Assembly (NCBI GenBank): GCA_050084985.1
Contig: JBITNC010000001.1
Span: forward strand, 199,144,001-199,208,000
From: Nageia nagi
Lineage: Eukaryota > Plantae > Pinophyta
Direction of reading: 5' to 3'
Length of the DNA: 64,000 bases
Shown: one piece after another, positions 1-34,118 of the stretch
How positions within the stretch are numbered: the stretch's first letter is position 1
Layout of the letters: every line of letters begins with the position of its first letter
The notes under the pieces: generated by a model
What the model was told of the DNA's origin: nothing
The model's database searches: none
What the model saw: only the letters and a program-made list of their open reading frames with translations
Program-made: the position numbers and the translations under genes

Positions 1-930
1 GAAATCCAATGGAGTGATTTTTGGCGCCTAGCATGAGAGGAAAAGATAATTTTTTGATAAAATTCAAGTTTAAGTGCTTGGGAACAAGGAAAAGACCATT
101 CTAAGCACATTTAATACTCAAAATTTTCAATTTTGAGCAATTTTGGGCACCCTAAAGGCTAGGCGAAGGTTTGCTAGTTTTTCCAAATCCAATGGAGTGA
201 AAATCAACACCTAGGTTGGAAAGAATTGATAAATTTTGATCAAAAGTCAAGTTTGAAGACATAAGTGCATAAAGGAGGTCATTTTGAGAAGGTTTAAACT
301 TGCAAATTTTCATTTTTGAGCAAGTTTAGAGGCTCAAATACCTAGGTGCAAGTTTGAGGCTGATTGAAGATCCATTGGGCTTAAATCTAGTGCTTAAGTT
401 GCCAAGAATTGAGAAATTTGGTCCAAAATTCATGTGTGAGCACTTCATTGCATGGAAATGCCATTTAAAACACATTTAGGTCTACAAAAAAGTGATTTTG
501 AGCTCATTTAAGGCCTCTCGAAGCTACGCGCAGGTTTTAATGTCATTGGAGAATCCATAGGAGTGAAAATCAACGCTTTAAGTTCGAGAGATAAGTGCAA
601 ATTCACTCAAAAATCAAGTTGGACCCCTTCCTTGCATGGAGAAAGACATTCCAAACACATTTAAACCTACACATTTTCAATTTTGAGCACATACAAGGCA
701 CCAAAAAGCCAAGTGCAGTTTTTCCAATTTCTCCAAATCCATACAAGTGAAAACTAGTGCCTAACTTGAGGAGGAACATCAAATTTTGGTCAAAAATAAT
801 TTTTTTTGCCTTCATTGCATGGAAAGTGGAATTCTAAGCAACTTTAAACTTTGAAATTTTTGAATTTGAGCAAGTTAAAGGGCTCAAAAATTTGAGGCAT
901 TTTTGATTCCTATGGAAATTTCACTTGTTT
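1..930 (+). repeat. ~183-bp degenerate tandem repeat, ~5 copies
   Basis: AATCCAATGGAGTGA-like motif recurs at ~3, 186, 370, 552, 736 and 906. Reverse complement of the array at 21230-22760. Confidence 0.75.
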
Positions 931-2435
931 CTACCAAATGAAATCCATAGACATGAAAATGGAAAAAATTGCCAAAACCTCAAATCTTTCATTAAACCTC
1001 CTAAAAATCTCCAAAACCTCTCAAAATTTGCCAAGTACCTTGTAATCCCATTCTCCATCCATCCATCCATATGCTCAAATTTGCTTTTTAAAATTTTTTC
1101 AAATTTCGGATCCCCCTTTATCTTTTTCGAAAAATAGACAAAAAAATTCACTTTTTCAAAAAATTCTCTTTGAATCGATTGAAAATTTGCCACAATGATC
1201 ACATCATGGGCAAATCTAGATTCAAAGAAGGAAGGAGCTCAAAAGATTATCAGAATGATCCAGAACGAGGATTTGAAGCTCCAATTTTTGCCAAATTGAT
1301 GTAAAATGCCTCAAAATGCATGCGAGGGCATCAATTTTTGTAAATATTTTATTTTTAGCATATTTTAGTGGGATGAGACTGTTCTCCCACTAAAATGATA
1401 TTGTAATCTCAGTTTAGCATTTAAATTAGCATTTTAAAGCTTTTTTAAGAATTAGGGAAACACCCTCAAATTTTGACCTAAAAAGTTTATAAATAGACCA
1501 TAGGGGGTCACATTTTGAGGTAGAATGTTGAAGTCCAAGAAATTTCCAATTTTTTTCAAACTTGGAAATTTTTGTAATTGAGGAGCAAATTGATGTACTT
1601 ATGCAAAACTCTTTTGCAAACATAATACAAAGGGCTACAAGTTGATTCAAAATGTGTTGTCATCTATGGGAGTGGTGGATTGATCTTTTTAGAATATTTT
1701 CTGTAATTTAAACATTTTTGTGTCTTCTCTTTGAAAACTCTCGAGTTTTAGGAGAATTTGTTGTAAGCTTTTCAAAAATGTTTGAATTGTCTTGAATTGT
1801 TGCTAATTCATCGCTTGCTTGTTAAATGTTTAGTAATCTAAATTGATTTTCTCTTAAGATATCTTCCTGGACCTCTTGTTTAAAACTATCCACCTTCACT
1901 CACGCTTAGTCCACTTGGTTGCATCGGTCTTGTTCACAGATTACTGACAATCAGTTCTGCTTCTCGTTCATCTTTGAAATGATTGGACAATAGTCATCCA
2001 TTTCAAAGACTTGATTGAATTGAACAAGATTTCTTGCCTTATTCGAGAGAGAGAACGTTTAGACAATGCTGCATTGTGACTACCTCTTTGAAGTTTAGCT
2101 AGTATTCGACCTCATTCTCACTTTTTCTTTTCTTTATTTTACACTTTCTTTAAACTTATGGCAACTTTCGAACTATTGTAAGATAACACACCTTAGTCCC
2201 TACAAAAAACGTGAGTTAACAGTTATTACCTCTACTACACCACTCAGTTGATTCCCAAACAAGACCTACAAATTTAAAGTTCGTACTAATGACACGAGCT
2301 TTCCGATAGAAACCTTGGGGTATCAGTCTTTACAAGAGGAGTTCAGTAATGCATTCTCACCTACATGCTGGGTCGCTTTCAGGTCTTGATCGTATGGGTG
2401 ATCGCCAAGTAAGAGGAAAAGTTTTCTTCCCAACA
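1..2435 (+). mobile_element. Giant-LTR family unit, 3' part (cut by window start)
   Basis: Ends ...GGAAAAGTTTTCTTCCCAACA, like the family ends at 17079, 55203 and 18634 (minus). TATAAATAGACC at 1488 lies ~950 bp before the end. Shares the ~183-bp repeat with 18634-36711. Abuts the PBS region of another element. Confidence 0.7.
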
Positions 2436-4582: not shown

Positions 4583-5776
4583 TGTGATGTTCCCCTTTGA
4601 TTATTGCATTTAATTCTAGAATCCAATGGATTCCCCCTTTGTACATATTTAATTATTAATTATGTTTTATTAGCTAGGACTTGGGATAGAAGTCTTAATG
4701 GATCATTGGACCCCATTGTGAGCCCCAAGTGGGACATCTCCCTCCCAAGTGTAAATTGGAGTGTTTTAATGTACTTGAAGATCTTGAAACATGATTGTGG
4801 GAATCCCAAGGTCTATTTAGCACTTAGAGGATGAATGAGCACTTAATGGCCCCAACGTTGAGATTGGGAGCACTTGTACACATGCGTCAGCCTTGTGGAG
4901 ACTTCTAGACCCCCATGTTGGCCCTGACACCCATGTTGCCCCCCTAGATGCCCACACATGCCTCCTTGACCCAGGCATGCATTCTTAGACCCACGTGGAG
5001 CATGAGGGAGGTCTAGATACCTATGTTGGGCCTGGAGTGACTCCTAGGTGCCAACGTTGGGGTTTGAGGGGACTGGGTGATGACATTGAAGTGAGATCCA
5101 AATCCAGGAAAACTTTATTAGCCCTTGGAGCCTTATTGTTGGATATAGTGATTTGATAATATTACCCATACCGTCAAGAGGACAGAAGTCTTAGCATAGC
5201 GCTAAGCAACATCCCTAGGTGCAACATCTAGGAGTGTTAGCAGGCTGAGGGATCCTATTAATCTACGACTTTGGTGTAGCACCCTAGCCCATCCAATGGT
5301 ATTCCGAGGTTGAGCTTCTACCATTCAGTTGGTCACCAGGGTTTGAAGAGGGCTCCTTCGATGGAGAGGATTCAGATTCTAAGGGAGCAACACTGTCCTA
5401 TCCTTCATTCGTTCGTCCAACAATGAGACACACATTGTGCCCTAGTTGGCTCCGTGGAGGCCAACGTCCAGCCCTTGGGGCCTCGTATTGTATCATTGAT
5501 GATTATTTATCTTGAATACAACCGTTGGGCACTTGGATCTCATATTGTTTTGTGCACTTGTCTATGTATGCAATGTTGTGGTGTATTTACTCTTTCATGC
5601 ATGTTGTAGCTAGATTTTGGCATTGTAAGGTTGTGTTTGCTTGTATCTTGAGCTCTAACCCTAACGTTGGCATATTGAGGTGTTGAATGCTTGTTTATGC
5701 CCTTCTAGGCCAGACATGGGTGTTGGTTTGAAGGACTTTGCTTATTTGTGTGAGAAATTGCATTAGGGCTTTTATA
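4583..5776 (+). mobile_element. 5' LTR (1194 bp)
   Basis: TGTGATGTTCCCC...GGCTTTTATA (CA mutated to TA) followed by PBS. Same family as 62205-63389. Confidence 0.85.
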
Positions 5777-11055: not shown

Positions 11056-11059
11056 GTGG

Positions 11060-14000
11060 AAGTTTTGCTCCACCGAAAGTGGGAGAAACAGGAAAATGAG
11101 CAAAAGGACAGCCAATGAGAATGCTCCAAGTTTCCTAAAATTCCAAAAGTGTCAAAATGAAAATCTAAGAGTGAGGTAGGTTGGCAAATAAAAAATTAAG
11201 CACCTTTCGTCTTGGAATTTTCAAAATTGAGCAATTTTTGCCCCTCCTAAAGTTAGGCGCTGGTTTTGGGTGTTTTCCCTTAACTTCTCAAAATTGGAAA
11301 ATGGCCTAAAAGCCTCAAAACCTGCACCTACCCTTCTTGTGCTCCAAATTTGAAAAAAATTTAAAATTTTGACCTTGATGGGGTGTAGGATGGGATTCCA
11401 CACAAGATTGGTGATTTGAGTTGTCCAAAAAAATGAGATCTACTTCCTCAAATCATCGAAATTCGATTGGCCAATGAGAGAGCTTTAAATTTTCTCAAAT
11501 TTTCCAAAATTGGTCAAATAAAAAAAGGAGAGTGAGGTAGGGTGCAAAATGCAATGGGGATCAACATTGCCTCTTGCAATGTTGCAAAAAAATCAATTTT
11601 ACCCCCTTAGAAAGCTAGGTGACAGTTTTGGCTTGTTTCCCCCATTTTCAAGTTTTTCAGAAACATGCCAAGAGTCCTAAAACCTATGCCTAGAATGCAA
11701 GCCTCCTTTTTTGCTCAAAATTCAAAGTTTTTGATCTTGGGAGCATGGGAAATCCTATTTTGCACATCATTCATGTTTTCAGTTTTTTTAAAAAAAGTGG
11801 ATCTACTCCCTCAAAATCCCAAAATTTGGATCAGCCAATTGGAGAGCTTCAAAATTTTTCAAATTTCTAAAAAAATTTTAAAATCAAAATTGGAAAGAAA
11901 GGTAGGTTGCAAAGCCAAATGAGAGCATCTTTGCCTCTTGCAAATTTGCTCAAATACCAATTTTTGACCCCCTTAAAGGTAGGTGCTGGTTTTGCAAGAC
12001 TTACCCATTTTTTCCATTTTTTAAAACTTGCCAAACATCCCAAAACCTGCGCCTAGCTTTCCTGGTCCCTAAAAGTGCCCAAAATTGCAATTTTATGCTC
12101 CTATGAGGTAGGTGGTGTGATTCTACACCCTTTTGACCTATCATTTGTGCATTTTGGTTCACACAAACTCCCAAAAACCATCTTTTTGCATTCAAAAAGA
12201 ATTCAATGGCTGAGAAAACTCAAAATTTTTTTGATTTTTTTTCAAAAATCCCAAAATTCAAAATCCAAATCTGAAACATGGAGGATGAAGAGCAATCAAA
12301 AGCCATCATCTTTGCTTCCAAGACCCCCGACATTGCTACAAAACTTCCCCTTCCACCCTTAGGTGCAGGTTTTGGCAGTTTTCCCATGTTTTCCAACATT
12401 GACAAGGAGGAGGATGAGTCCAAAATGCAAGCCAAAAAAAATTGCAAATTACAACACTTTTCGATGATGGCACACTTAGAGTGAAAAATGCCAAAAAAAA
12501 TCTAAATTTTTCAAAAACCCCTCTTTGCTTGCCTAGAAAGTGCCATAAGCTTCCTAGGACTCTTCTAACTCTTGTTGGTCTCTTACATCAAAGATAGGAA
12601 GCAAAAAAGGCTGACCATGGATAGTCTCATCATGCTTGAACACACTACAGAGCCAGTGATACCTGTCGCAAGAATCATTGACCAGTTGAGTGAGATCGGG
12701 GACACAGATTGTAACTCCCTCAATCCAATAAAAACTCTAATGAAAATACAAGCATTGAATCCGGCTTCGCTAGTAAAGGACACTTTGAAAACCTCCTCAC
12801 CAGTAACAGCTTCTATGGCGCCATTCGCCACCCCCTTCCCTAAGCTATGTTACGAGCTAGGAAAGCATTGTGACATCAGAAAGCGAAGAGTCCTCGACAG
12901 AAGGAATGAGGTAATCATGGACTTCTCTGAGGAAGGAATAGAGAGCATGTTCACTTGGAAAAGCAATGGCTTATCATACAACATATAGGATTCCTTGAGG
13001 TTCTACAAAAGTCTGAAACCTCCAGCTGACTTGATCAAAGATTGGTTGGCCGATGACCGTACGCATCTCACAAGGAGAGCCTTCAGAGGAGAGTTTTATC
13101 AAGTAGTCTCTAGACTAATATCTATGCTTTCCAGAGTGATCGGACAAAAAGATGACACCAAATTCCGGCCAGAATTTGCAGGGTTCATAGAGCTGATCAG
13201 CAGTGGTAAAGGCATAAGGTGGAGCAAAGTGATTAGTGATTGCCTGGCTCAACAACTGAAAAATACCCAAGGGAGCAAGAAATTCTATATAAACTCCTAC
13301 CTGGTTTACCTACTCCTTCACGGTAGGGAGAGGGTGACCTCAATCGCCAATACCCAATATCTTTATGACTTCATACATTCAGTGTGGAAAACTACCCATG
13401 GTTCTTTGCTCATAACAAATGGAACAATGGAAACTGGAGGATGATGACCGATGGTTTTGAAGGCAAAATTTATGAAGAGATCATAGGCAAAGCCAATGTA
13501 CTTAGAATATCCAATGAGATTGCTGTCGCTATCAAGGGACATGCGGACTTCTTTGTAGAAGACAGAGTTCACCTACCTTAGGGCTATGGCTCTAAAGAAG
13601 CCCCTTATAAGCTACCTTGTTATGCAAGTGATTGCATCATCCCATGGAATTTTCAAGACACTTGCTAAACGTTCACAACAAGGTATGGGTAAAGAAGGCA
13701 ACGACCACTTACCAATTACCTATCATCATCAGGAATTATGAATGCACCAACTAGCAACAGATTGACATGATTAAACAAGAGTTGGTGTTATATGAATTCC
13801 TGATCGAAGTAGCTACGGATCACTATGATCCCGATGGAGTGATTCATCCATTTTTCCAGAAGACATGGAGTTCATCATATCCACACCAGTCCCTTGGTAG
13901 CATTGAGAGATATAGGAAGATTCAGGACGTCTTGTAGGTTCAACGGATTCACAAGGAGCTGAAAAAAGAACAAAAACAACACGAAGCCGAAGAAGCTACC

Positions 14001-17000
14001 AGGTTAAGAGCCAATTCACAGGTCACCATACCCTCGAGCCATGGGTATGTTATTCCCATAATATCCCCTTAATTGACCCTGGCTTAAGGACAGAACAAGC
14101 AGTATGCTACTAGTAACATCCTTGGATAAACCATTGAAACAACTGTCACAGGTATGAGGAATGAAATCCTAGACCTCAAAAGAGCAGGCCTGATCTCTCA
14201 GCCATTCAAACACTTGCAGAAAAAGATAAATCTCTCACAAGGTTTGAATTGGAGTGGTATGCGCATGATTCAAAACCCTAGCACATCCTCATCCAGTTTT
14301 GATAAATATGGACCGAGTGGCTCATCGGAGTCCGATGAAGAAATGGATCTCGCTGCAATCATCAACATCGACATGGAGATAAACTAAGATATTGCCTTTG
14401 ACAGGGTTGAAACTGATCATTCAGTAGAGATCCTTAACGAGGACAATCCCTCAGTTGATATGATTGTACAACAAGCAGTAGGAGAAGGTACCCCAAAATC
14501 CACTCCTTGGAAATAGGCGTCATAAACGCCACCATCTCGGAGGACTACAACAACATTAGCACAGAAGGGTACTTCAAGACCCAGGACAATGGCATCACAT
14601 TCAGGGGGAGATGGTGGAAATCAAGAGGATGAGGGAGAAAATGCAGAACAAAGGAGAAAAAGAAGATAAGTAAAGCATGAAGTCGAGATCATCGATGACA
14701 GAGAGATGGTTCCCTATAGAAAACAACCCATGGAACCCCGCTTCGATATGGCTGTAGTGATGTCTAATTTTAGTTCAAATCACCCCTGCGAAGGAGAAGA
14801 TTCCAAAGATGAAAATGAAGAACTTCAGCAGCTTGATACTCTCACCACCATTGTAGGTAAAGTCACCTACAAGGACAAGCTCTACCCCAGAAAGAACAAG
14901 GTTGGTACCGGAAAGTTTTCCCTCATAGTTGAAACAGAAGAGGCCCCTGCAGAGATTGTTGGTCCATTGGGAATGGAGCACATCATCACAAATGCATGGG
15001 CATTGAGGGAATCCAATACTTTATTAAAGCTAGAGATTTGGGAGCTAAAGAAGGAAGTGGTGAGTCAAGAAATGATCGACAAAGAAGTCAAGGTCAAGGT
15101 TGCTAATTTGACAGTTGAAGACATCAAAAAGTAGGTTGACTTAAATACTGGAATCACTGCTCTGAAACAAGGATGGACCAAGGACCTTATCGAGGCTATC
15201 AAAGCACTCCACTTAAGCATGGTAAATTTTTATATTGAGGAGGAGGGGTCACATTCTCAGGCAGAGAAAATAGACCAGTTAATCATCAGGTGGAAGAGTG
15301 GGTACCCTACAATGTTCGACCTATGGAGAAGGGAAACCCACCATCCTTTCATGCTAGATTTTTTGTATAGATTGTTTCCAATTGTAAGATTATCTGTTCT
15401 ACATCAAAGCCAAGTCCACCGACTTCATATACACCAGAGCTCAACTTAAAACCGTCATCAATGATCAGGCAAGGAAATACTAATTCCAGGTACCCTTGTT
15501 TGAAGAAAACGACAGCATTAAGAAGTATATGATAGCGATGACAATGATCCATGCCACTATTGCAGAACAACTGTGTCCCAAGGATCCGCATAGCCTGAAA
15601 ACAGGAAAACATATGATAGGAGGGATGAGATTGGCCGATTGGTGCAAGGAAATGGTCAAAACCAATAAGGCCATCTTGGAACACCTGCTATCAAATGAAG
15701 AAGCCCTCCAGACAATCCACCGCGCCATCAGGAATGTATAAGTGTTCATGGGAGATAATTTTGAAGCCAAAATCTCCACGAACATGCAAGTCATCTTCTC
15801 ACAATTGCTAGAATAGAAAGAGGTCTATTTGGGCAAATTTTTGATATATAAGCCAAATGTTTGGCCAACTTAGTGGATTTTCGCTAAGTTCAATTGTAAT
15901 CTTAATTAGTATTTTCAATTAGCTTGTAAATAATTGTTAGTGTTACAATTAGGGTTAGGGTTTTGAAACTCATTTCTAAGGTTTCAAAAGTCACTTTAAG
16001 GGTTTCCAAAAACTCTATAAGAGACCAAGGGTCTCATTTTTTTAAGGACTTCATTCTGAAGCAAACACTTCTTTTCTTGAAGAGAGCTATCTTGAGAATT
16101 GAGAGCTTATTTTAAATCTTGGCACCTTTTTTTTTCAAAATCTAACAAAGTGGTTAATGCAAAGACTTGAGTTAGACACTTTTCATATTGATGTTATGGA
16201 TTGATTCTTTGAAGGCACTCATATTGGGTCTGTGTACTTTCATTTTATTCCTTTGAAAGCTTTTGAGCTTTAGGGAAGTTATCTCTGAAAAACTTTAAAA
16301 AGTATATGAAGCTTACCTATGTTTGTTGCTTGGTCCTTAACATGCGAGTTGATTGGGTATTCTATGTCAGTTTCTACTTCTATGACATGTTTTTAGGTCT
16401 TTCATCCAAAACCATGATCCTCCCACTTTGAGAATTTCTCGTTTTCCATTCAATTGCATCGGTCCTATTCGTAGAGAACTGACAATTGGCAATCCTCCCT
16501 GCTTCCCTTTGAAGCAATTCGAACGCTAAGTTGTTTGCTTGCAAGGTTGGATGAATTGGATGAAGAGCTCTTAACCGATTTAGAAGAGATAAACTCTTGG
16601 ACACTTTTCCGTCAGTGAACCTCAAACCCATATTCGACCAAGTATCCTTTCTTTCTCCAAGGTGTTGCCCTTCACCTTTTATAGTATTGCCTTTACGCTT
16701 TCTTTATGCTTTCATACCCAAATGTGATTGTTAAGTACACACACAAAAGTTCCGAACAAACTCTATACATCAAAGATTAAAACATCATTGGTTAACGGAC
16801 TACATACCTCTCATTTCATTTCATTGAGGCTGATTCCAAAGAGGGATACCGCACTTTTATTCATCTATCCCTTTTCGAAAATACATTTGGTGGACATACC
16901 TTACAACATCACAACGTTGGGGTCGTTGGGCAGGGTGTTTCAACAAGAGCCTTGGAGGTACACAGTCCTTTTCAATCGGGAGAATTGGTAATGCATTCCC

Positions 17001-17079
17001 AACTATGTTGCTTGGGGTCTCCCAAGTTTCGTGCGCGATATTTAGAGTGTCCCATGCGGGAAAGAAAAGCATCCTAACA
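11060..17079 (+). mobile_element. Giant-LTR family copy A (5'-truncated), retaining the internal gene
   Basis: Colinear with 51481-55203 on both sides of the ORF. Ends GAAAAGCATCCTAACA. ~363-bp repeats at 11250-12400. CTCTATAAGAGACC at ~16013. Confidence 0.85.
12617..15741 (+). pseudogene. ~1040-codon uncharacterised protein inside the giant LTR, with stops and frameshifts
   Basis: Chain of same-strand ORFs (12572, 12995, 13384, 14154, 14706, 15219, 15496). Motifs IGDTD...ASMAPFATPF, WSKVISDCLAQQL...FYINSYLVYLL, FTYLRGYG...PYKLP. Homologous peptides at 19775-20307 (-) and 53801-53938 (+). Confidence 0.75.
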
Positions 17080-17410
17080 GAACCTTGTCTCCCTCCACAT
17101 TTGCGACCAATTGACTTGGGGGAGACTTGAAGTGAGACAAGAACCTTGTCTCCTTTCATAGTTGCACCCAACTAACTTGGGGGAGATCCGAAGTTAGACA
17201 CGAACCTTATCTCCCTTCACCTTTGTGACCAACTGACTTGGGGAAGGTCCGAAGTGAGACAAGAACCTTGATTCCCTCCACATTTGCGACCAACTAACTT
17301 GGGGAAGATTCGAAGTGAGACATGAACCTTGTCTCCCTCCACATTTGTGACCAACTGACTTGGGGGAGATCCGAAGTGAGTCAAGAGCCTTGTCTTCCCT
17401 CACATTTGTG
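17080..17410. repeat. 61-bp tandem repeat, ~5.4 copies
   Basis: Unit GAACCTTGTCTCCCTCCACATTTGCGACCAACTGACTTGGGGGAGATCCGAAGTGAGACAA at 17080, 17141, 17202, 17263, 17324 and 17385. Confidence 0.9.
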
Positions 17411-18267
17411 CCTAGGCTTTGAGATGTTGCCACATGTGGTACTTAGCCATTTTTTCTTCCTTGGTCATTTGTATTGGTCATTTGAGGTCTCTGGGAGGCT
17501 AGCGCAAATCTTGGAGGGGACTTGGATGTTGACTCTTTGAGAGGATGCTCCTGAATGGAATTGGCCAAGCTTTTTCCTTGTTGTTTGAAATTGTCTTCTA
17601 AGGCTCTTACAAGGCTGGTGCAAGTCCAAGGAGAGTCAAGAAAATTGTTCTAGGTCACACTTCCGCTAGGAAGGTATGCGTGATTCGGATGAACATCGTG
17701 GAGAACACAAGATGTTTGTCTCCTGTCTAACTTGCATTGGGGTATAGGAGGGATTTTTGTGCCTGGTACTTAGTCAATTTTCACCTTTTTCACTGATATT
17801 AAGTCTCTAGGATGCTGGCGCAAGTCTTGGAGTAGTCAAAGCGAATGACCTATCTTGCTTTGCATCAACAGGGGAAAGAGACAAGCCGAGCGCAAGTGTC
17901 CTTGGGGTCAAGGATTTTGTCTCCCTTTCGACTTGTGCCAAGGCAAAAGGTGTTCCAAACTTAGTCAAATTTGGCCTTGGTTGCTTGAAATGATCATGTG
18001 GAGCTCTCAAAAGTGTGGTGCAAGTCTAGGGAGAGACAAAGAGGTTATCTCCTTGAGGATATGTGCTCAAGGAGGACTTAGTCAAAACCTTGCTTTTTTA
18101 CTACCAAAAATTCAATTTTGCTCATTTCCACCAATTCTAATCTCCAAAGCCTCCTGATGTCAAGACACCATCAATTTGGTCACTCCTCCTAGGTGACTCC
18201 TTTTTGCCAAAATTTGTGGGTCCCCAAATTTGCTAAAAATTTGGGGCATGTTGTGGAAGCCACAACA
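17080..18267 (-). mobile_element. 5' fragment of a related giant-LTR unit
   Basis: Minus strand starts TGTTGTGGCTTCCACAACATGCCCCAAA, like 59625, 50273 and 36711. Interrupts the start of the LTR at 18268. Confidence 0.65.
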
Positions 18268-18633
18268 TATTCCATCAGATTCCTCCTTTGTACATATTTA
18301 ATTATTAATTATGTTTTATTAGCTAGGACTTGGGATAGAAGACTTAATGGGTCATTGGACCGCACTGTGAGCCCCAAGTGGGATGTTTCCCTCCCAAGTG
18401 TAGATTAGAGTGTTCTAATGTAGTTGGAGATCTCGAAACATGATTGTGGGAATTACAAGGTCTAATTAGCACTTGAGGATGGATGAGCACTTAAAGGCCC
18501 CAACGCTGAAATTGGGAGCACTTGTACACAGGCACCAGCCTTGGGGGAGACTTCTAGACCTCCACGTTGGCCCATGACACCCACGTTGCCCCCTAGATTC
18601 CCACGCATGCTTCCTTGGTCCAGGTATGCATTT
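18268..18633 (+). mobile_element. Left part of split 3' LTR of element 4583-37468
   Basis: Matches ~4620-4984 and resumes at 36712. Confidence 0.85.
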
Positions 18634-19774
18634 TGTTGGGATGGAAACCTTTCCTACCAGCCTAGGATCACCTGCACACGATCGGGATGGGGAAAGCATC
18701 TAGCATTTAGGTGAGTGTAACTTACCTCCTCTTGAAAGGATTGAAACCCCAACGTTTGTTCGTGTTCTTGTTGAAGTTGCACAATTTTATATATACGATG
18801 ATTAGGGGAATGAACTAAATTGGTTTGAATAGAGGTAGAGGCTGTTAACTCACGTTTTTTTTTATAGGGACAAGGTGTTTTTGCGATGATTGAAAGTTGC
18901 TCTGGTTTTATAACAAAAAGAATGCAGGAAAGATAAAATAAGCAAATAAAAAACAAGAAAAAGGGTGAGAATGATCCAATACTGGTTAAGTCACAAGGCG
19001 ATTGTCACAACAAAGCGTTGTCTAAAATGAGACGTTTTCTAATTAGTTATGAAGTTTTAGTTCATTCAATTTAGTTCAAGGTGAATGACTATTGTCCAAT
19101 CAGCTTTGAATCTAGAGCGAGAAGCAGAGCCGATTGTTGGTACTCTGCGGATGGGACCAATGCAATTAAAGGAAACAGCGTAGAGTGCACTTTGGAACCA
19201 AGTTTGAACAAAAACTTCAAATAAGATGTAGAAAAGAAACAAATTCAGAATACATTTTGTTTAAATATGCAAGAGGCAAAAGATAGCAAACTTAGAGCAA
19301 TTCAAGATATTTTTTAAATTTTGAACAACTATTTTCTCCTAAAACTCTTGAATTTTCAAGGAAAGAAACGAAAATATTTGAATTGTGAAACAGAGCCACA
19401 AATGAAACCCATTCACCACTCCACGCATGACAATTCTCTTGAGGAAATATGTAACCACTTTGTATTAGATTTGTAAAAGAGTTAACAAAAAAGTTTCCAC
19501 AATTTTCTCCTTTTACAAAAACTTTGAACTTTTTCTCAAAATTTTCACTCTTTGAAAAAGTTCCAAACTTTCATTCTACCTAAAAGTGACCACATGGGGT
19601 CTATTTATGGAATTTCTAGGGTTTCAAGTGGTGCCCTAATTCTATAAAAAAAATAGTACATAGTTGCTTGCTACGACTAAGTCAACTGACTTTTGGTGCT
19701 TTACTTGCCAGGCTAACTGATCAGGAGAGCAGGGTTAGTCGAGTTTGAGTGCTCAACTTTCCCGGCTAACTGAT

Positions 19775-20307
19775 TTACAAAATTTTCAAAATTTTGAAGA
19801 TGACAAAAATTATTGTGGCTAACTTGTAGTTTACACGTGTGATGTCCTCGAAGTTGGTGCCACAGATTTCTCTTGCCTTTGCTGATATGATGTATGAAGT
19901 TGACAAACTCCTTTCTGAATGTTTGGTCATTTTCTTGATGAAGTCTATCATGGTGAATGTGATGGCCTTGTTGCTCCATGCGAATGTGTTCTCTATTCCC
20001 TCCACTGTGAAGTCTATTACTTGGATGTCATCAGTGTCATAGAGGATTCTTTGAATTTCTCCTTTGTGTTGCAGTATCTGACTACTTCGAGGTAGAACTC
20101 TGCGAATGGAGTGGTGTACGGGATCATGGAGGCCTTGACAACTCTGGACTGAGTGAGAATTTCGTTGAGCAGTTGTCCAGGTGGGATTTGAGCCATTTTC
20201 TTTAATGTCTTGACTGGGTCATTGTGTGCCCAATCTGTATCTTTGATTTGATTGAGGCCATCGACAAGCATGGCCATGGGGAAAGAAGTCTTGCCCCCTT
20301 TTCTCAA
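19775..20307 (-). pseudogene. N-terminal remnant of the giant-LTR protein
   Basis: MAMLVDGLNQIKDTDWAHNDPVKTLKKM...ASMIPYTTPF...EGIENTFAW aligns with VARIIDQLSEIGDTDCNSLNPIKTLMKI...ASMAPFATPF...EGIESMFTW of 12617. Confidence 0.75.
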
Positions 20308-21229
20308 TGGTGATCAGGCTATCCTTCATGATTTTCTTTATCTGGAGTCCCTTGTTCCTCTTAGCAATGCTCATTCTATGAAGCCTGTGGAGCACAAAAA
20401 GTTGTTAGGTGAGATATTGAGTGTATCTGGAGCAATTTTGGAACAAAAATGGAATATTCAATTTTGGCCTATTTTTGGGTTTTTGAGAGGCTGTGTGGAT
20501 TTTCGGGATTTTTGAAGCTTTTCGGAATTGGGAAACAAGTACATGGGGTGTTGGCAAATAAATCTAGGAGGCTTGTGATCAAGTCTCAAAGAAAAATATT
20601 GAGTTTTCGGGGTCCGAATTAACTTGCTGTTTTTTTAGCCCATGTATTCATTTTTTGACAGGTTTTGGCAGCTTCGAAGCTTGGGAAGATGGGGATGCAA
20701 AATGGGTTTTCAAGCTTCGTTTTTGAGAGATGAATGGCGGCTGCTTTCCTATATGAGGTCTATCACTTTGGTATTCACTTTGAAATTTGGATCACTCAAA
20801 ATATTGGATTTTTTAGCCTTGAAAAAGTGTTTTTTTGTGTTTTTTTACTTTTTTCCAAAAAGCTTGAAAATGGTGGAAATGGCCAAAAGATAGGGGGGGT
20901 TTGAAATTTCGAAAATTTTTAAAAAGTGGATTTGACATAATGGGTGGATAGAGGATGGAATTCTAAGATCCTTGAAAAATTTTGACAATGTTTTGGCTTA
21001 TTTTGGATCTTGTGAGCAATTTGAAGTTTTGACCAATTTTGTGAGGTTCTGTGAGGATTTTGCTAAAAAATGGGTGCATGGAGGCTCAAGGAGAGTGTTT
21101 GCGAAGCAAATGAGAGGCTTAGGGGGGTATTTATAGGGTTTTTGTGCCATTTGCATGCTCTTTAATGGGTTTTTGACCTAAAAAGTGCTCTATGGGTGCA
21201 TTTTGCACATTTCTTAAGATTTTTGAGCC

Positions 21230-22760
21230 TTCAAACACTCCATAGGCTTGAAATTCAGCGCCTAGCTTTTGGAGGCACTTTTTTTGGTCAAAATGGAAAA
21301 CTTCAAAGTTTAAATGTGATTCAAATCACTTCCTTCATCCATCATGTGTCCAAAATCGAATTTTGATGAATTTTGGGGCTTCCCTTGCATTTAGGTGCCA
21401 TTTTTTTATTTTTTGAAGTTTCCAATGACTTGCAAACCTGCACCTGATCTTTGGGGCATTTCTAGTGCTCAATTTCAAAAATTTGCTGACGTAAACTTGC
21501 TTAGAATGCCCTTTTCCATGCAACATATGAAAAAGTGAAGTTTTTGCAAAATTTTTGATTCCTCCTCATGCTAGGCATCATTTTTCAATTCATTTGAATT
21601 GGAAAAATTAAAAAACCAGGCGCCTAGGATTTTGGGCCACTTCTTTTGCTCAAAATTCAAATTTTGCAAGTTTAAACGTGTCTAGAATGGTGTTTTTGAC
21701 CCAATGGACCCTTCACACTTGAGTTTGGAGCAAAATTTGCAAAATATTTCCATCCTAGGTGCTAGATTTCACTCTATTGGATTCCTAAGGGTATGAAAAC
21801 CTGCGCCTAACCTTTAGGTGCCTTTCCATTTCTCAAAATTGGAATTTTGTAGTTGTAAATGTGCTCAAAATGGGTTTTTCCACCTAACGGACACCTTAGG
21901 ATAAATTTTTGATGCATTTTTCACTTATCCCTCCAAGTTAGGTGTCATTTTTCATCCCTATGGAATTAGAAACATTCGCAAACCTGTGCCTAGCCTTTGG
22001 AGGGTCAAAACTTGCTCAAAATTGAATTTTTCATGACCTAAATGTGCTAGAAATCGCATTTTACACTCAATGAGCCCTTCAAACTTGAGTTTTGACCAAC
22101 TTTTATCAAATTTTTTGTTTTAGGCATCATTTTTAATCCCATTAGATTTCCATAGTTCTCAAAAACTGCGCCTAGCCTCTAGGGTGCCCAAATGTGCTCA
22201 AAATTGAAAAATTTGAGACCTAAATGTGCTTACAATGATGTTTTCCTTGGTCATAAGCATTTAAACTTGATTTTTGGTCAAAAAACATTCTATCTTGTCA
22301 ATGTAGGCCCCATTTTTCACTCCAATGGATTTGGAAACATCTAGAAACTTGCGCCTAGCATTTTGGAGGACTTTACTTGCTCAAAACCAAAATTTCAAGA
22401 CCTAATATAGCTTAGAAAGATCATTTCTACTTATTCATGCATTTAGATTTCATTTTTGAAGCATTTCCACTTTTCCTTTACTATCTAGGTTCCAAAATGC
22501 ATCTCTATGGATTTTCCATAGGCTTGAAAAACTGTGCCTAGGCTTAGAGTGCCTTAGACTTGTTCAAAATAAAAAATTTCGAGTCTTAAACATGATAGAA
22601 TTAATTTTATCTCTCCAAATATGCTTTTAGACTCAAATTCCAACGCCATTTGTATTTATCTCTAAGAAACTTGCACCATTTTTCCCTTACTTGGATCTTC
22701 AATACCTTGGGAAAATGTGCCAGGGGCTACGGCTACTCAAACTTGCATTTTCGACCATTC
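21230..22760 (-). repeat. ~183-bp tandem repeat, ~8-9 copies
   Basis: GCTCAAAATT-like motif at ~21468, 21648, 21831, 22014, 22196, 22379, 22562 and 22735, with AAACCTGCGCCTAG in most units. Confidence 0.85.
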
Positions 22761-22804
22761 CAGACTCAATCTTTGTATTTTCGGCCACTCTCACTGTTTC
22801 CAAG

Positions 22805-24471
22805 TGATGAGTTAAATAATGACACTCCAAATTCCCCCAGGGCTGTCACTACCCTCCCCTTAGTGATCCTCACACCTGTTATTGTGAAGGGACTAGTTAA
22901 CTCAAAGAGCTGGTACACCAACACTCAGGAAAGCTTTTAGTTGCCTCTCACTAAGTTTGGAATATCAACATTTATCCCCTTCATTACTTTTATCAAATCC
23001 GGGAGGTGTTCAAGGCTGTATGCTATTGAGCTCTGCTCTCTAAGCTGTATCTACTTCAAGCAAAGTGGCAGAAAGCAAATGTGCAGAACTGAACGTTGCA
23101 GAATTGAAAGTACAGGAATCTGAAATACTAAAAGAGAGACAAACTGGAAAATACTGAACTTAAAGCAAACTCACATTTAAACTTGGAAAGTACAGAAAGA
23201 TAAAAGAGTCTTTTACCATTTGGAGTGGGTCCTTGCTCCTCTTGGTGGAAGACTTACAGAACTCAGAACTGGAAACTCTTTAACAAATCACTTTATTGTT
23301 GCATGCAATTCGTCTTACACATAATGTGCTTGACAAATCTAATACAGAGCTTCAACACAATAATCTATTCACACAATACTTTCTTAATTTTCTAACCCCT
23401 CCTACCGTCAACAATTGAGGTATAAATATCCTCCATTGTTTAACAATAGGTAGGTCAAGAATAACCATAATCTGAACAGTATTCTGTTATGGAAAACAGA
23501 ATCATTTATTCTACTAACTGGCTAATACTAAAATTATCATACTAGTAGTATCCATGCCCTATCTAAAGAGAGCTGCAATCCCTTAGAAAAAGGGATAGCT
23601 CATCTCAACAGGTCAGCACTATCCTATTTACATTCATAGGTAGTTTTTTATGCTTAAATTGGAGTCAAACATACTCCAAAAACAAGAATCATATCTGACT
23701 ATATCTGATGTGTTGAAACCATGCTTCTACAGACTATATCTGGAGCAGTTCATATCTCCTAAATATCTGGATCATACAAGGTTAGAATAGAGCTAACAAT
23801 ATAGTCAAGAATGACAGTCAACTCCTCAGATCTAGGCCTGGAGTGGAAGCTTCGGACGAGTTTGAAGCAGGAGCTCCGGATGAGTCCAACAGAGGCTCTA
23901 GACAAGCTTGAAATAGAAGCTCCGGACAAGCTTGAAATAGAAGCTCCGGACAAGCTTGAAATAGAAGCTCCAGACGAGTCTAGAGCAGGCGCTCCGGACA
24001 AGTCTGGGAGATAGAGACCTTTGACACGTCTGAGTTGAAGACCTTGGGTGAGTTGAGAAGGGCTCTAGACAAGTCTGGAGGAGAGCTCCAAACAAGTCTA
24101 GCTCTTCTTTATTAAAATGAGGCGCCAACTATGTTTGGAATGGAGCTTTGGACGATGCAGACCTTTGTAAAAATCTATTTGGAGCGGAGCTCCGAACAAT
24201 GTAGAATTTGTTCAAAGGCATCTTCACAAGACTTGCAACCCATCCAAATTACCGACCATCATTCTATGTAGCAAAAAGAAGCATTTTGGTTCAAAACAAA
24301 CACAAAAGTATAATTAGTATGCACAAAATACTAATAAGGAAGGTATGCATTTAACCATATATTAAGCAACTAGATAGTTCAACCATTACAAATAATCCGT
24401 CCCATAATGTCCAAATATACAAAATGAACCATTGAACCGTGCCAAAACCAGGTAATTTCTGAGACTCATCA
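22805..24471 (-). mobile_element. Athila 3' LTR (1667 bp)
   Basis: Direct repeat of 34119-35811. PPT AGGGAGAG (minus) at 24472-24479. Confidence 0.97.
23847..24005. repeat. 24-bp tandem repeat in LTR U3
   Basis: AAGCTCCGGACAAGCTTGAAATAG-type units. The other LTR has one extra unit. Confidence 0.9.
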
Positions 24472-24526
24472 CTCTCCCTAGCTGAAAACATTGCTACCCC
24501 TGGAGCAATAAAAGAAGGAGACAGTT

Positions 24527-26806
24527 TCAATCAGAATCACTGGAACTGTCATCAACAGTAACAACTGATGGAGCATGAACTAGATGAGCCAAATCATAGG
24601 GTCCGTCAGCGAGTTGCAATTTTTGGCGGGTCTGAATGTCAATGGTGCCTTGTTGAACTTGTGGAACACTTGCTCCTCCACCATGTTGCCGGATAAGCCG
24701 AGACTCCCAAGTTCTAAATGCAGCATTTGATTGGGGCCCGTTTTCATTCTCATCTGGAACAGGGAATAGAAGTAACGGAGGACGAAACTGACTACCCACC
24801 CAATTATCAGGATCTCTTTCTAGCAGAGAGATGAGAGAGAGAGCTCTCCTTCTGCTCCAATATAAATTACCAGGTGTGAACACTTCACGAACACGGAGCT
24901 CATAGTGTAAACCCATCCAACGTGTGTTACAACACACAACAGCTTCATCAAACACAGTGTGAAGAGTTTCTCGGCATTCCTGTACACATTGTGATATTGC
25001 TGCTTTATACTGGGCTTTAATGGGGCCCTGTACAAGAAGTGCACGCAATGCAGCCTGAAACCGTTGGGGAAAGTATGCTTCAATTCGCATTGGAAAGACA
25101 TCATTCTCCTGATTGTTCTGGAATTGAGCTATTTCTTTTCTCCACTGAATCTGATTTAATAGGGCATAAATAAAGGCCCTTAACTGGACTTCTCCCACAT
25201 ACAGGTTAACAAAAAACCCCCGATCAGACGGAACAAAGAAACCGTGAATAAAGCATTCACACACCAAGAAGCGTTGCTCTTCCGAAGCAACAGAATATTC
25301 CTGAAGAAATTGTTTGGGGGTGTCTAAACAATAAGGTCACCCTTTCGTAAGCTGTGATAACTGCCATCTATAGAAAAGTTTTTTCAAATATACACTGTAA
25401 ACTGATGAAGGTGAGCGCAGGCGTAGAATTTCCTCAAAGATGGAGGAAGCATTCTGGACAAGTTGCCTTGGAACAACAGAGGTTTGGGAGAGTGCCGCAA
25501 CTCTACGCTGAGCTTCTTCAAATTTATCTTGTAGACTCTGATGCTCAGCCACCAACTATGTATGTACTGTGTTGAGATCAGAAGAGGCATATTGTTCCTG
25601 CGCTATCTGATATCTTAATTCTTCAATCTCCTCTCGCAGCCTAGCAGTGGAAGCTTTCTCTTCTGTCAAAGCAGACATACAATCAAAATTCTGCTGAATT
25701 CTATCCTTTAAAGCTAACTGTTCAGCTGTGATGTGCTTAATCATTACATGGAGTGTCTATGCGTCCATGTGTTGTCGCCGCATTGTGGCATTAGCTGCAG
25801 CCAACTCTTTGTTTTTCTGTTCTGTCTTAGCATATTGGGCACGCAGAATCTGATTTTCTTGCTCCAATTGTTTAGTCTTTCCCTCTAATTCTTGAACCCG
25901 AGTTAATAGCAATCCATATGACACGTCTGGAGTAGTAAGCGAATTTGCAGTCACAAAATCCGGCTACAAATTGATAGAAGCTTGTGGTGATGCAACACGT
26001 GATCTCTTCCTAGACGGTCTAGCGGAAGACTCTGCATGTGGTTGACAGATGGAAGGCTTATCTTGGATATGAGCTGTTGGAACTGCCTCTACCCGATTTA
26101 TGCTAAATACAGGTACTGTATCCGTTTCAGCAGCCTCCTCCTTGCCTTTTAAAAATGCTTGCCAGGCTTCTTCTCCACCAATTTGAAGAAAATACTCCCA
26201 ACATATTAGAGTGATAAGTCCATGGTGTTTCAAAGGTGAAGTCTGATTCGACTCACGCCACTTAGCAGCCATGGACTGCAGACTGTCAAATAAATGCTGG
26301 GGAATATTATACCTGTACTTTGTTGGGTGTCGTAATTGAACCAATAGTCGCATCTGATGTCCTTGCAATGTTGCATACTGGCCCTCACAAAAGAAATATT
26401 TCAGCACCCAGGTGGCAACTTCACTCCAAGGCTCGGGCAAGGAAACATGATTAATTCCTCGGTCGCATCCTTTGCTCGTGAATTTAGTTGCATGGGGTTC
26501 AGCAAGATGATGGAAGGCGTGGAGAACATTGTCCGGCGATTCCTTTCCAAGTGTCAACTCTTCGCCTTCAGCAGGGATACCAGAGATGGAACTGATTACT
26601 GCAGGAGAAACTGGAGTGGTGTGCCCTCGCAGAGTAACAGAATTCTCATTCAATTCGGCTGCAAACTACCGCACCAACTAGAGTTCATGGCCTTAAAATT
26701 TGTCGAAAAACGGAAGCCATTGGGCCGTGGCAAATATTTCTGACACCCTTTGATCCTTCCGAAGCTCTTCCGTCGAGCTGGGTTCTTCTCGACGTTTCTG
26801 ACCCAT
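24527..26806 (-). pseudogene. Athila accessory ORF3 (env-like position), 759 codons, 7 in-frame stops, no frameshift
   Basis: ATG at 26806 (MGQKRREEP...WLPFFDKF*GHEL*LVR*FAAELNENSVTLRG...). Track ORFs 25964, 25757, 25556, 25337 and 24527 are all in this frame. Central coiled-coil-like segment. Confidence 0.85.
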
Positions 26807-26915
26807 TTTTCTGACAACCGGTTGGTCTGCAAATGCTTGGCTGGAGTTTGAATGTGGCGAGGTGACGAACAGAGCTTATGGCACAGTTGTTATTTGGACA
26901 TGCAGGTTCAAATAA

Positions 26916-26922
26916 TTTTATA
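26916..26922 (-). promoter_or_regulatory. Candidate TATA box for ORF3
   Basis: TATAAAA on minus strand ~110 nt upstream of the ATG. ACGT-core motifs further upstream (~27001, 27295, 27327). Confidence 0.4.
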
Positions 26923-27537
26923 ACAGTTAAACTACTAATTACCTAAATAATGATGAAATGACATACCATTAATGGCGGATGGTGGTGGAGCGTGAAAATG
27001 GACGTCCGGTACGTGTGAGGATGGTAAGGTGATATACCACTGATTGCATGCATGATAATCTGGAGCCGCCGCTTGCCTCCAATGAATCACATGTCATGTG
27101 AAGGACGTTTGACATGTGTGAAGTATTGGTTGATGTGAAGTAAAAAGGTGGCGGTTGATTTGTGTGCAGGGAAAAAGGTGTCAGTTGGTTTTATTTATGG
27201 CGTGGAAAGAGGTGGCAGCCAGTTTTTAAACTGTGCCATGGAGTGGTGAGTATGGATGTGAGGATACGTGGATGTACTTGGTTACTGAGCTGTCACGTGG
27301 TCCGTTGTGCTGCGCTCCCGACAGGTGACGTGTCCTTGAAGATTGGTCCATCACGTTGTAACTGAAATCGTGTCGAGCGCATTGTGCAAGGAAGGTGACG
27401 AAGAAACTGGCAGCTTTGGACGTGTTCGGAGAAACATCGTCCAACGCTCCAGTCACCATACGTATGCAAGATTCACACCATCTTTCGGAACTAAAATAGT
27501 CCCTGTTGACATGGGAATTCTGCATGTGACCCTGCAT

Positions 27538-27540
<3 letters not shown>

Positions 27541-27608
<68 letters not shown>
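27541..27608. repeat. (TA)n microsatellite followed by T-tracts
   Basis: ~34 TA units with one CA interruption, in the pol-ORF3 spacer. Confidence 0.98.
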
Positions 27609-27785
27609 ATTTTAAATAAATTTTTTTTTTTCTCGTTTTTTTTCTTTTTTTTTTTACATATAATACTAAGCTTCTTGTGTTTCCAGTGTCAATGGTTTTC
27701 ACCCGACAAGTGTCAGTTTCTTGATTTTCACTTGTCGACTGCCACATCCACTGGAATCACTTATTTATAGAGCTGATCAAAGAGT

Positions 27786-30700
27786 TTATTTTACCACATC
27801 CGAGGAAGAAGAGGCTTCCCCGGATACATCAGGATCTGCTATCTTTATCTGCTGTGTGAATTGCTCCTTCGTTGATGGTATCAAATATGGTTGGAGGTGA
27901 TGTCCATTAACCAAGAGAATCCTCCGAGAATTGTCAATTGGCTGTAACTGGACTGAACCATTAGGGAATATTTGAAGAATCTTATATGGCCCCAACCATC
28001 GTGTCTGGAGCTTCCCTATGAAATCATTATATCGGGAATCAAATAATAGAGCCCATTCCCCTACTTGAAACTGATTCTGTTTCAGATTTTTGTCATGCCA
28101 AAGTTTCCGTTGATGTTGGATGATTTCAGTATTATGCAATGCCTCCATTCTTATTTCATCCAGCTCATTTAACTGGAGCAGTCTATTTTTTAGAACTTCT
28201 GTTATGTCCATCCCAACTTCTAGGGCTGTTCTCAGTGTCTGGAGCTCAAATTCTTTTGGCATTAGAGGCTTCTTACCAAAAACCAATTCATATGGAGTGA
28301 ATCCAGTGGTGGATTTCCACATGGTATTGTATGCCCAAACTGCTTCAGGAAGCCTGGATACCCAATTCTTTCTGTGCGAAGCTACTGTCTTGGTCAATAT
28401 ATTTTCCAGCTCTCTGTTAGTAACTTCAACTTGTCCATTTGTTTGTGGGTGATAGGGCGAAGCCTTCTTATGTCGGATCTGATATTGGTTTACAAAATGT
28501 TGTATTGTCCTTGACATGAATTGCGGACCCTGATCAGAAACCAGAAATCGAGGAGCTCCAAATCTCTGCATAATGTTATTATACAGAAAATCTGCCACCA
28601 ATTCTTCTTTGGCATGTGCCAAAGCTACTACTTCCACCCACTTAGTGGCATAATCAGTACAGACTAGTATGTGTCTCTTACCTCGAGATGGAGGATTAAT
28701 AGGTCCAACAAAGTCGATGCCCCATTGCTCAAATGGTTCAAGCATCCACTGTGGTTGTAATGGCATTTGAGTAGTAGCAGTTGGTCTACCCATTCGTTGA
28801 CACTGGTCACATTGCTTCACATATTTCCTAATGTCTTTGTGCATGGAAGGCCAAAAATAACCAGCTCCTAGGACTTTATGAATGGTTCGTTTATCAGAAT
28901 AGTGACCTCCTGACGGCTCATCATGACATGCACGGATAATGTCAAATACCTCATCTGTCCGTAGACACCTTCGGAGTGCATAATCAGGTCCATATTTAAA
29001 CAATAATCCATCCACCCATTTGTATGATGCACTTTGTTTTATCAGTTGTTTCCTCTGATTTGGAGATAGATATGGAGGAATTCTTCCAGTGGCAAGATAA
29101 TTAGCAATGTCTGCAAACCATGGGGATTGTGTAGAGATTGCAAATAGTTGTTCATCTGGAAAAGTATCCTCCACAAGCTCATCTTCTCGAATGATGTTCA
29201 GTCTAGACAAGAAATCTGCTACTACATTTGTCTTGCCAGGTTTATCAATTATAGTCACATTAAACTCCTGTAATAACAGCAACCATCTCACGATTCTTCC
29301 ACTTACCACAGGTTTGTTCATGAGATATTTAATGGCAGCATGGTCAGTATGAACAAACACTTGGTACCCTGTGATATAGTGTCTAAATTTATTGATGGCA
29401 TACACTACTGCTAGGAATTCTTTTTCTGTAGTAGTATAATTTCTTTCAGCTCCTACCAAGTTTTTGCTTATGTAATAAATAGCATATGGGGACTTACTTG
29501 GTTCTTCTTGTCCTAGGACTGCTCCAATAGCATAATTTGAGGCATCCGTATGAATGTGGAATGGAAGTTCCCAATTTGGACCTCTCAACATAGGAGTTGT
29601 GGTGAGTTTTTCTTTGATGGTCTGAAAAGCTTCTTCACAGTCAGCCGTCCATTCAAATTCATTGTCCTTATGCAGCAGGGCATTTAATGGGGCCGCTATT
29701 TTACTGAAATTTTCTATAAATCTTCTGTAGTATCCGACATGTCCCAAGAAGCTCCGGACATCTGTTTGAGTCTCAGGTTGAGGAAGTTGCTTGATGACTT
29801 CTATCTTCTTGGGGTCCACCTGAATCCCTTGGGCTGAAATATGATGGCCCAAGACTATTCCCTCCTGTACAAGCATGAAACATTTTTCATGGCTTAAGGA
29901 TAGATTATGCAGTTTGCATCTCACCAATACTTTTTCTAAGTTCCTTAAGGCATCTTCAAAAGTGTTGCCATACATTGTGAAGTCATCCATGTACACTTCA
30001 ACGCAATCATTAGTCAGATCTGTGAAGATTGCTAGCACAACTCTTTGGAAGGTTGCTGGTGCATTGCACAAGCCAAAAGGAAGAACCTTGTAAGCATATG
30101 TACCCCATGCACAGGTAAATGTAGTCTTGCCCTGATCTTCTTCTGCAATTTGTATTTGGTTATAGCCACTGAATCCATCTAAGAAAGAGAAATACTGTTT
30201 ACCAGATAGAGTGTCTAACACCTGATCAATGAAAGGCAATGGAAAGTGGTCCCTGAATGTGGCTTTATTGAGAGCTCTGTAGTCAACACATACCCTCCAT
30301 TCGCCATTTTTCTTAGGCACAATCACCAAAGGTGAGACCCATTGACTATCTGAGATAGGATAGATGAATTCAGCCTTCAACAACTTCTCAATTTCAGTCT
30401 TAACAACTTCTTTAAGTGCAGGATTTATTCGTCTAGGAGGCTGCTGGACAGGCCTGGTTTCATTCGTATAAATATGATGGGTACATATTTGAAGATGAAT
30501 TCCTTTCATGTCTGAGTAATCCCAAGCAAAAGCTTCGGTGTGAGTGGTCAAGACATCAAAAAGCTTCTTCTCTTGTTCATTCGTCAGCCAACTGCTGATA
30601 TTAAGAGTCTTTCCTGGTAATACTTCAACAGTCTTAATCCCAGGCTTGGTCAGATTACTCTGTTCTGGAAGCTGAACTAGGGAATTCAAAGGACAAGAGT

Positions 30701-31073
30701 GTGGGAATAAGGAATGGAATACCCTTGTTCTTTCCCTGAAAGTATCCCCTTTTGGAACAATGTGAGTAAGAGGACATTTGAACATTGCCAACAAGGCTGC
30801 TTGTTCTTCTGAAGGAACATTAAAAATAATGCTTTGTAATGGTTCGACCATTGTATCTCCCCTTTCCTCATCACTGCCCTCTGATTCTCCTTTCTGTTGC
30901 TCCGGACAGTGATACTGTATCTGTTTCAGACTAGGATCTTCTTCTATCTCCTCGACATGGTCCTTGATGGTGATGGTTGCTAATGTTGCAAAAGTGTCAT
31001 GTGCATCCATGTCAGGCTCGTCGATCCATACCTGATTGTGATAATCCAATGTTGGTTGGGCAGGTGGGTACAA
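27786..31073 (-). CDS. pol: Pol: reverse transcriptase, RNase H, integrase
   Basis: FLDGFSGYNQI, VYMDDF, HTDASNYAIGAVL, HDEPSGGH...CDQC, WGIDFVGP / SDQG / GQVEVTNRE (DDE), WLGPY. Stop-free. Lies +1 relative to the gag-PR frame. Confidence 0.97.
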   Translation of the reverse strand: MYPPAQPTLDYHNQVWIDEPDMDAHDTFATLATITIKDHVEEIEEDPSLKQIQYHCPEQQKGESEGSDEERGDTMVEPLQSIIFNVPSEEQAALLAMFKCPLTHIVPKGDTFRERTRVFHSLFPHSCPLNSLVQLPEQSNLTKPGIKTVEVLPGKTLNISSWLTNEQEKKLFDVLTTHTEAFAWDYSDMKGIHLQICTHHIYTNETRPVQQPPRRINPALKEVVKTEIEKLLKAEFIYPISDSQWVSPLVIVPKKNGEWRVCVDYRALNKATFRDHFPLPFIDQVLDTLSGKQYFSFLDGFSGYNQIQIAEEDQGKTTFTCAWGTYAYKVLPFGLCNAPATFQRVVLAIFTDLTNDCVEVYMDDFTMYGNTFEDALRNLEKVLVRCKLHNLSLSHEKCFMLVQEGIVLGHHISAQGIQVDPKKIEVIKQLPQPETQTDVRSFLGHVGYYRRFIENFSKIAAPLNALLHKDNEFEWTADCEEAFQTIKEKLTTTPMLRGPNWELPFHIHTDASNYAIGAVLGQEEPSKSPYAIYYISKNLVGAERNYTTTEKEFLAVVYAINKFRHYITGYQVFVHTDHAAIKYLMNKPVVSGRIVRWLLLLQEFNVTIIDKPGKTNVVADFLSRLNIIREDELVEDTFPDEQLFAISTQSPWFADIANYLATGRIPPYLSPNQRKQLIKQSASYKWVDGLLFKYGPDYALRRCLRTDEVFDIIRACHDEPSGGHYSDKRTIHKVLGAGYFWPSMHKDIRKYVKQCDQCQRMGRPTATTQMPLQPQWMLEPFEQWGIDFVGPINPPSRGKRHILVCTDYATKWVEVVALAHAKEELVADFLYNNIMQRFGAPRFLVSDQGPQFMSRTIQHFVNQYQIRHKKASPYHPQTNGQVEVTNRELENILTKTVASHRKNWVSRLPEAVWAYNTMWKSTTGFTPYELVFGKKPLMPKEFELQTLRTALEVGMDITEVLKNRLLQLNELDEIRMEALHNTEIIQHQRKLWHDKNLKQNQFQVGEWALLFDSRYNDFIGKLQTRWLGPYKILQIFPNGSVQLQPIDNSRRILLVNGHHLQPYLIPSTKEQFTQQIKIADPDVSGEASSSSDVVK

Positions 31074-33906: not shown

Positions 33907-34097
33907 ATATTCTCAAGCAAATAATCAAACCAAACTATCACAACTTCAACAACAGTTCTCTGCAGATTCTTAATATAGGTTATTGGGGCCACTCATTCTG
34001 TTAAGAATTGAGGAACCAGGACGGCACCCGATTGCAAATTGGCTCTGTCAAGTCCCCTATCCTTAAGAACTACAGAGATAGCTCAATCAACACCGTT

Positions 34098-34115: not shown

Positions 34116-34118
34116 AAA

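Follow-up and report, generated by a model that had tools for sequence, protein, structure and literature searches.

The 64,000-nucleotide stretch of Nageia nagi DNA analysed here (the window; assembly GCA_050084985.1, contig JBITNC010000001.1, positions 199,144,001 to 199,208,000) raises the question of what kind of mobile element ends in TG...CA, is flanked by 5-bp target site duplications (TSDs) and holds a long gene of its own with no gag-pol beside it. Our analysis suggests, with a probability of about one half, that this unit is a solo long terminal repeat (LTR) from a gymnosperm Ty3/gypsy retrotransposon not itself seen, and that it would measure about 7.9 kb. Its unique 3' region (U3) would hold a selected gene of about 1,065 codons, with a weakly predicted PMD/VANC-type chromatin-binding fold. 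We infer both the LTR label and the function of the protein. Whichever of the main readings applies, the unit is real, high-copy and unusual.

A TG...CA unit between 5-bp target site duplications

Copy D (50273–55203, forward strand) is a complete TG...CA unit from which the open reading frame (ORF) has been deleted. Direct reading gave TGTTG as its first and CAACA as its last letters, and the TSD AAGTC stands on both sides (50268–50272 and 55204–55208, no strand assigned). The empty copia site, in which 50267 is joined to 55204 with 5 letters in common, was present in the contigs of three of the four public runs (1, 2 and 5 contigs per run), and the fourth run had a nearby joint with other letters. 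Copy B (18634–36711, reverse strand) is a complete diverged unit, about 60% identical to D and about 5.1 kb long without a nested Athila element (22805–35811, TSD CCAAG). It is flanked by CATTT and CATTC as its TSD, and its empty site is seen in the paralogous host LTR at 4583–5774, which runs unbroken across the site with a single CATTC. TG...CA termini were found at all ends, five left and seven right, and the duplications of D and B, whose empty sites were both seen, measure 5 bp, within the 4–6 bp looked for. When the 900 bp at one end were compared with those at the other, in D and in B, direct and inverted repeats scored like 30 shuffles, and the same comparison revealed no terminal inverted repeat longer than about 5 bp in the unit. 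The original prediction, which had taken both copies for single units with 5-bp TSDs and without terminal direct repeats, was correct, and what inserts is a TG...CA unit flanked by a 5-bp TSD.

The family is repetitive. Each bin inside D reached a summed contig depth of at least 37 in all four runs, against 0–29 in the left flank, a depth that indicates a repeated family and is no copy number. Scanning of metagenome contigs with the right-end motif gave 10 loci, three of which were true copies. L008 is colinear with D and has the same deletion junction, which shows that an ORF-less form has been copied. The ORF of L002 is less decayed, and a short relative, N, is nested in that locus; the ORF of L010 carries another deletion than D and L008.

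Copy A (11061–17079, forward strand) holds the ORF, ends in ...CCTAACA and was inserted head-to-head in copy F. Self-BLAST and direct reading agreed with the proposal that it is colinear with D (82% and 79% identity) and has a decayed sense ORF, but it is not a whole unit: it is 5'-truncated, without the first 1.2 kb of D and fused to a chromovirus reverse transcriptase (RT) at 11056/11061, and it also lacks a 0.78-kb block that holds the upstream TATA. The unit length of 7.9 kb is a composite of D (4931 bp) and the ORF part missing from it (3008 bp). The other copies in the window are partial. C (1–2435, forward strand) corresponds to the 3' part of an ORF-less B-type unit, with a TATA at 1488, and terminates with ...CCCAACA in a chromovirus leader. 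E (59625–60380, forward strand) and F (17080–18267, reverse strand) are 5' ends of further relatives; the former has a TATA near 60248 and is interrupted by a nested chromovirus LTR, and the latter includes a 61-bp tandem array (17079–17408), its remainder being lost. Different internal deletions that preserve the ends were seen in B, C, D/L008, L010 and N.

All five left ends have a 5'-terminal palindrome, TGTTGTG-n-CACAAC, with a variable loop (50273–50290 in D, forward strand; 36694–36711 in B; 59625–59642 in E; 18249–18267 in F; 5002–5021 in L002). It scored above shuffles in only three of the five copies. Between D and F, a C-G pair beside the loop is swapped to G-C.

A selected gene inside the unit

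The decayed sense ORF of copy A extends from 12617 to 15816 on the forward strand, with several in-frame stops and at least five frame changes. The original prediction had recognised it and had placed its end at 15741, with about 1040 codons; L002 and L010 continue beyond A's stop at 15739, which moves the 3' limit to about 15816 and the length to about 1,065 codons. The last codons are kept in D as proposed, and amount to about 70 in two frames (53795–54005, forward strand) instead of 45, and the diverged N-terminal homologue expected in B was found (19787–20334, reverse strand). The position of the ORF is constant, since its 5' end is kept in B, its 3' end in D and L008, and both in A and L010. 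It has no termini of its own, occupies the same location in subfamilies about 60% alike, and is not a nested insertion, as different copies keep its ends at the same place. Comparison of A's ORF with an independent copy gave a ratio of non-synonymous to synonymous substitution rates (dN/dS) of 0.23 (95% interval 0.18–0.29) and not 1, indicating that the ORF is under purifying selection. On both counts, selection and the absence of nesting, the original prediction withstood the test, and the selected ORF is located inside the unit.

The protein is predicted to consist of an N-terminal globular domain, a middle part rich in serine, threonine and acidic residues, and a coiled-coil-like and helical C-terminus. 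It has 71 homologues, of which the only named ones were Taxus chinensis proteins (2 of the 20 clusters looked up). Pfam gave no family, PMD PF10536 included, for the window pieces, the L002 and L010 pieces or 46 alignment members, and no transposase remnant, MuDR included, in the ORF pieces of any copy. No DDE signature was found in the ORF and no integrase in the unit. The single weak fold match of the N-terminal domain was to VANC21, of the PMD/MAIN fold. On the giant-LTR reading, the product of the U3 gene is likely a chromatin or anti-silencing factor.

Two kinds of TATA site accompany the gene, and all six sites were at the positions predicted. The upstream one lies at 52903 in D, within a promoter block (52845–53620, forward strand) that is absent from A and 91% identical in L008, and at 21129–21135 in B (reverse strand), a copy that also holds the ORF start. 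The downstream TATA-like site was found in seven copies, 0.95–1.07 kb from the right end and with no ORF behind it. C and L002 have it in canonical form, and B has it at 19598–19606 (reverse strand); it is the non-canonical CTATAAGAG in A (16015–16023, forward strand, 1065 bp from the 3' end) and D (54171–54179, forward strand, 1033 bp). In A it is followed by a conserved 3' kilobase (16024–17079, forward strand), the putative repeat and unique 5' regions (R-U5). Ends of the integrase type and a TATA conserved some 1 kb short of the 3' end fit LTR anatomy.

Repeats recurring about every 182 and 365 bp, close to the spacing of nucleosomes, were found at 51200–52850, 11061–12431, 21140–22800 and 1–930; the second of these is a degenerate, U3-like region of A with a period of about 365 bp (forward strand). 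Short motifs vary between subfamilies, AGGTAG in A and D and TGCGAC in E, F and N. Just before the ORF start region (window 53775–53792), D and L008 have the splice-acceptor-like sequences TTGCACAG/TCGCACTG in a stretch of about 44 bp that is absent from A. To judge from the sequence, a spliced leader is conceivable for the U3 gene.

Solo LTR or unit mobilised in trans

If the unit is an LTR, the genomic RNA would start from the downstream TATA, with about 1 kb of R-U5 remaining, and expression of the U3 gene, in either LTR or in a solo one, would depend on the upstream TATA. The U3 protein would bind the U3 repeats of its own family and counteract silencing in trans, so that ORF-less subfamilies such as D/L008 could still be copied. 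LTRs of such length would recombine with each other frequently, and most of the copies left would be solo. As for its origin, a sense 3' extra ORF may plausibly have been captured into U3 via an upstream plus-strand primer.

Tat-clade Ty3/gypsy elements (TatII, TatIII, Ogre) resemble the unit in their 5-bp TSD and, if it is an LTR, in their very long LTRs (up to about 5 kb) with tandem repeats, and their PMD extra ORFs are accessory ones, like that of the unit with its possible PMD-type domain and coiled coil. The Tat ORFs are internal and often antisense, whereas that of the unit is sense, lies inside TG...CA and has no Pfam match to PMD; a linked RT or pol was not found beside the unit copies. 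We suggest that the unit functions like the solo LTRs of Tat-type elements with long LTRs, a group to which it may belong. Retroviral U3 genes, such as sag of mouse mammary tumour virus and nef of human immunodeficiency virus, which overlaps U3, lie within the terminal repeat and stay in solo LTRs, as the gene of the unit would. These LTRs are about 0.6–1.3 kb long, and the unit differs from them in its plant host, its ORF of about 1,065 codons, a second TATA of its own and the absence of a sequence relation. The env-like 3' ORFs of Athila and SIRE are, like that of the unit, sense accessory ORFs close to the element's 3' end. They are internal. The unit's ORF has no membrane segment (maximum hydropathy over 19 residues 0.98, four L002 pieces) and does not match the extra ORF of the window's Athila. 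In the accessible parts of the respective papers, Retand extra ORFs are internal and antisense (PMC11963269), and Platycladus has gymnosperm-specific Tat lineages with low removal rates (PMC13477047); the same part of the latter contains nothing on such a unit.

Several results weigh against the giant-LTR reading. A primer binding site (PBS) was found at 0 of 7 right ends, a polypurine tract (PPT) at 0 of 5 left ends and adjoining gag-pol at none of these 12 ends, which belong to 10 insertions, just as the original prediction had held for D and B. The absence of PBS and PPT is expected if the units are true solo LTRs. None of the 10 insertions formed paired copies around an internal region, and the flanks had no common sequence except one stretch between B and F that was counted from both sides. 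Among ordinary LTRs of the window, with hand-set boundaries, 10 of 13 adjoined an internal region or were paired around one, compared with none of the six units of the window (Fisher p = 0.003). Under the LTR model, the probability of finding an internal region at 0 of 12 ends is 6e-5, 0.025, 0.10, 0.15 and 0.35 for solo-to-intact ratios of 0.2, 2, 4, 5 and 10, and the LTR reading needs a ratio of at least about 4–5. The accessible part of one report gives about 0.13–0.25 for Pinaceae and notes that the ratios in Picea abies do not follow structural features (PMC5751070). Moreover, the largest plant LTRs are about 5 kb according to REXdb, a complete single copy of 7.9 kb was not seen among the copies examined, and the VANC21 match, with 5% identity, falls in a range described by the tool as common between proteins that are unrelated. 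In the parts accessible of two further reports, the ratio is 2.8 in Cupressus (bioRxiv 10.64898/2026.07.23.736688), and in angiosperms it increases with LTR length (PMC3673626). The original interpretation as a giant LTR with a U3 gene is partly supported; the evidence so far leans against ordinary LTR behaviour.

A somewhat less probable explanation, which deserves more weight than the original prediction gave it, is that the whole element is an LTR-less unit of 5–8 kb, which an integrase or a similar enzyme acting in trans would insert whole, with one accessory gene and with deleted non-autonomous derivatives as in DNA transposons. The contrast in internal regions between the 12 ends and the ordinary LTRs agrees with it, as do the isolation of both complete copies between their TSDs, the many distinct deletions that retain the ends, and the palindrome at the extreme left end of all five copies, despite its failure to exceed shuffles in two of them. 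The right end at 55203 had mixed flanks in 9, 3 and 5 public contigs (agreement 0.46, 0.57 and 0.51), contigs of low depth in which a common PBS branch could be missed. The 10 insertions are few, and solo-to-intact ratios of 5–10 would yield the same result with a probability of 0.15–0.35. The conserved, outward-pointing TATA, which lies 1 kb short of the 3' end, would be unexplained, the terminal inverted repeat is no longer than about 5 bp, and we know of no plant mechanism by which an integrase in trans inserts an LTR-less unit. Ginger/TDD and Polinton elements have TG...CA-type ends and 4–6 bp TSDs and move in one piece; the unit differs from them in having neither terminal inverted repeats of tens to hundreds of bp nor an encoded integrase. 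We regard it as possible, though doubtful, that the unit is a mobile element of a kind new for plants: without LTRs, up to 8 kb long and bounded by TG...CA, it would borrow an integrase for its insertion as a whole and make as its sole product an anti-silencing protein of the PMD/VANC fold, aimed at its own nucleosome-spaced repeats.

The likeness to VANC21 of VANDAL21, a Mutator-like element, and to MAIN/PMD proteins consists of the weak N-terminal fold match and of family-specific tandem repeats next to the gene. It raises the rather improbable case that the unit derives, as a non-autonomous form, from a VANDAL-like DNA transposon that lacks terminal inverted repeats; it would have kept only the anti-silencing gene and its target repeats, and the transposase would be in a longer copy elsewhere. 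Mutator-like elements have a TSD of about 9 bp, unlike the 5 bp and TG...CA ends found here, none of the copies has a transposase remnant, and VANC is described as dicot-specific. The absence of an internal retroelement region would suit such a derivative, and so would the tandem repeats and short motifs of the non-coding DNA, which are specific to subfamilies, for VANC targets are described as such in the accessible part of PMC5735166. Very unlikely, and largely refuted for this family, is a degraded element with short LTRs in which the ORF would be an extra ORF of the usual internal kind or else a nested insertion: sister copies are 85–91% alike, so any terminal direct repeat would still be visible in D or B, and the ORF stands without termini at one place in diverged subfamilies. 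The precedent for it is that plant extra ORFs are placed in the internal region by REXdb and by the accessible part of a review (PMC7264820), where 23% of 27 TatII elements in REXdb have a 5' and 26% a 3' sense ORF, and distant homologues may be internal in other gymnosperm elements.

Surrounding nest and meaning of the unit

One old chromovirus (4583–37468) apparently encloses the whole nest. Its 5' LTR (4583–5774) is followed by a Met PBS, its 3' LTR is split (18268–18633 and 36712–37468), the two are 86–89% alike, and the flanks are GTATA and ATATA. F and B lie in its 3' LTR, A in F, and the Athila in B. This Athila-type element (22805–35811, reverse strand) is near-intact, with LTRs 96.4% identical, an Asp-type PBS, gag of 966 aa, and pol of 1100 aa. 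It contains a (TA)34 tract, and of its two 3' ORFs one weakly resembles Transposase_32 (E 0.033). Another element (39423–45202, reverse strand) has 1.3-kb LTRs 94.8% identical and a Met PBS; its three internal ORFs (41141–43662) had no convincing Pfam match, and it is likely a non-autonomous chromovirus derivative. Members of the unit family insert into each other repeatedly, A in F and N in L002. N (L002 5002–6688, at least 1.7 kb) has a left end as in the family and lies reversed in the ORF of an A-type copy; its 3' part is weakly similar to B, C and D (scores 171–181 against about 100–115 for shuffles) and not to A. The right flank of the copy in L010 holds an exon-like sequence (780–1050), presumably of a plant sulfite oxidase to judge from a motif, which places the unit in or beside a host gene.

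A literature search gave no description of such a unit, and since repeat libraries (Repbase), REXdb Additional files 1 and 3 and most subscription papers were outside its scope, an entry may exist. Either the giant-LTR or the trans-mobilised reading would be new for plants. A true LTR would be longer than the roughly 5 kb of REXdb and would give an example from plants of a large gene under selection in U3 that spreads with each solo LTR. A unit that moves alone would represent a high-copy class of element that LTR finders would miss. The role of plant retrotransposon extra ORFs is called unknown by REXdb and in the accessible parts of PMC11963269 and PMC7264820. On either reading, the unit offers a testable handle on their function, a possible VANC-like protein beside its candidate target repeats.

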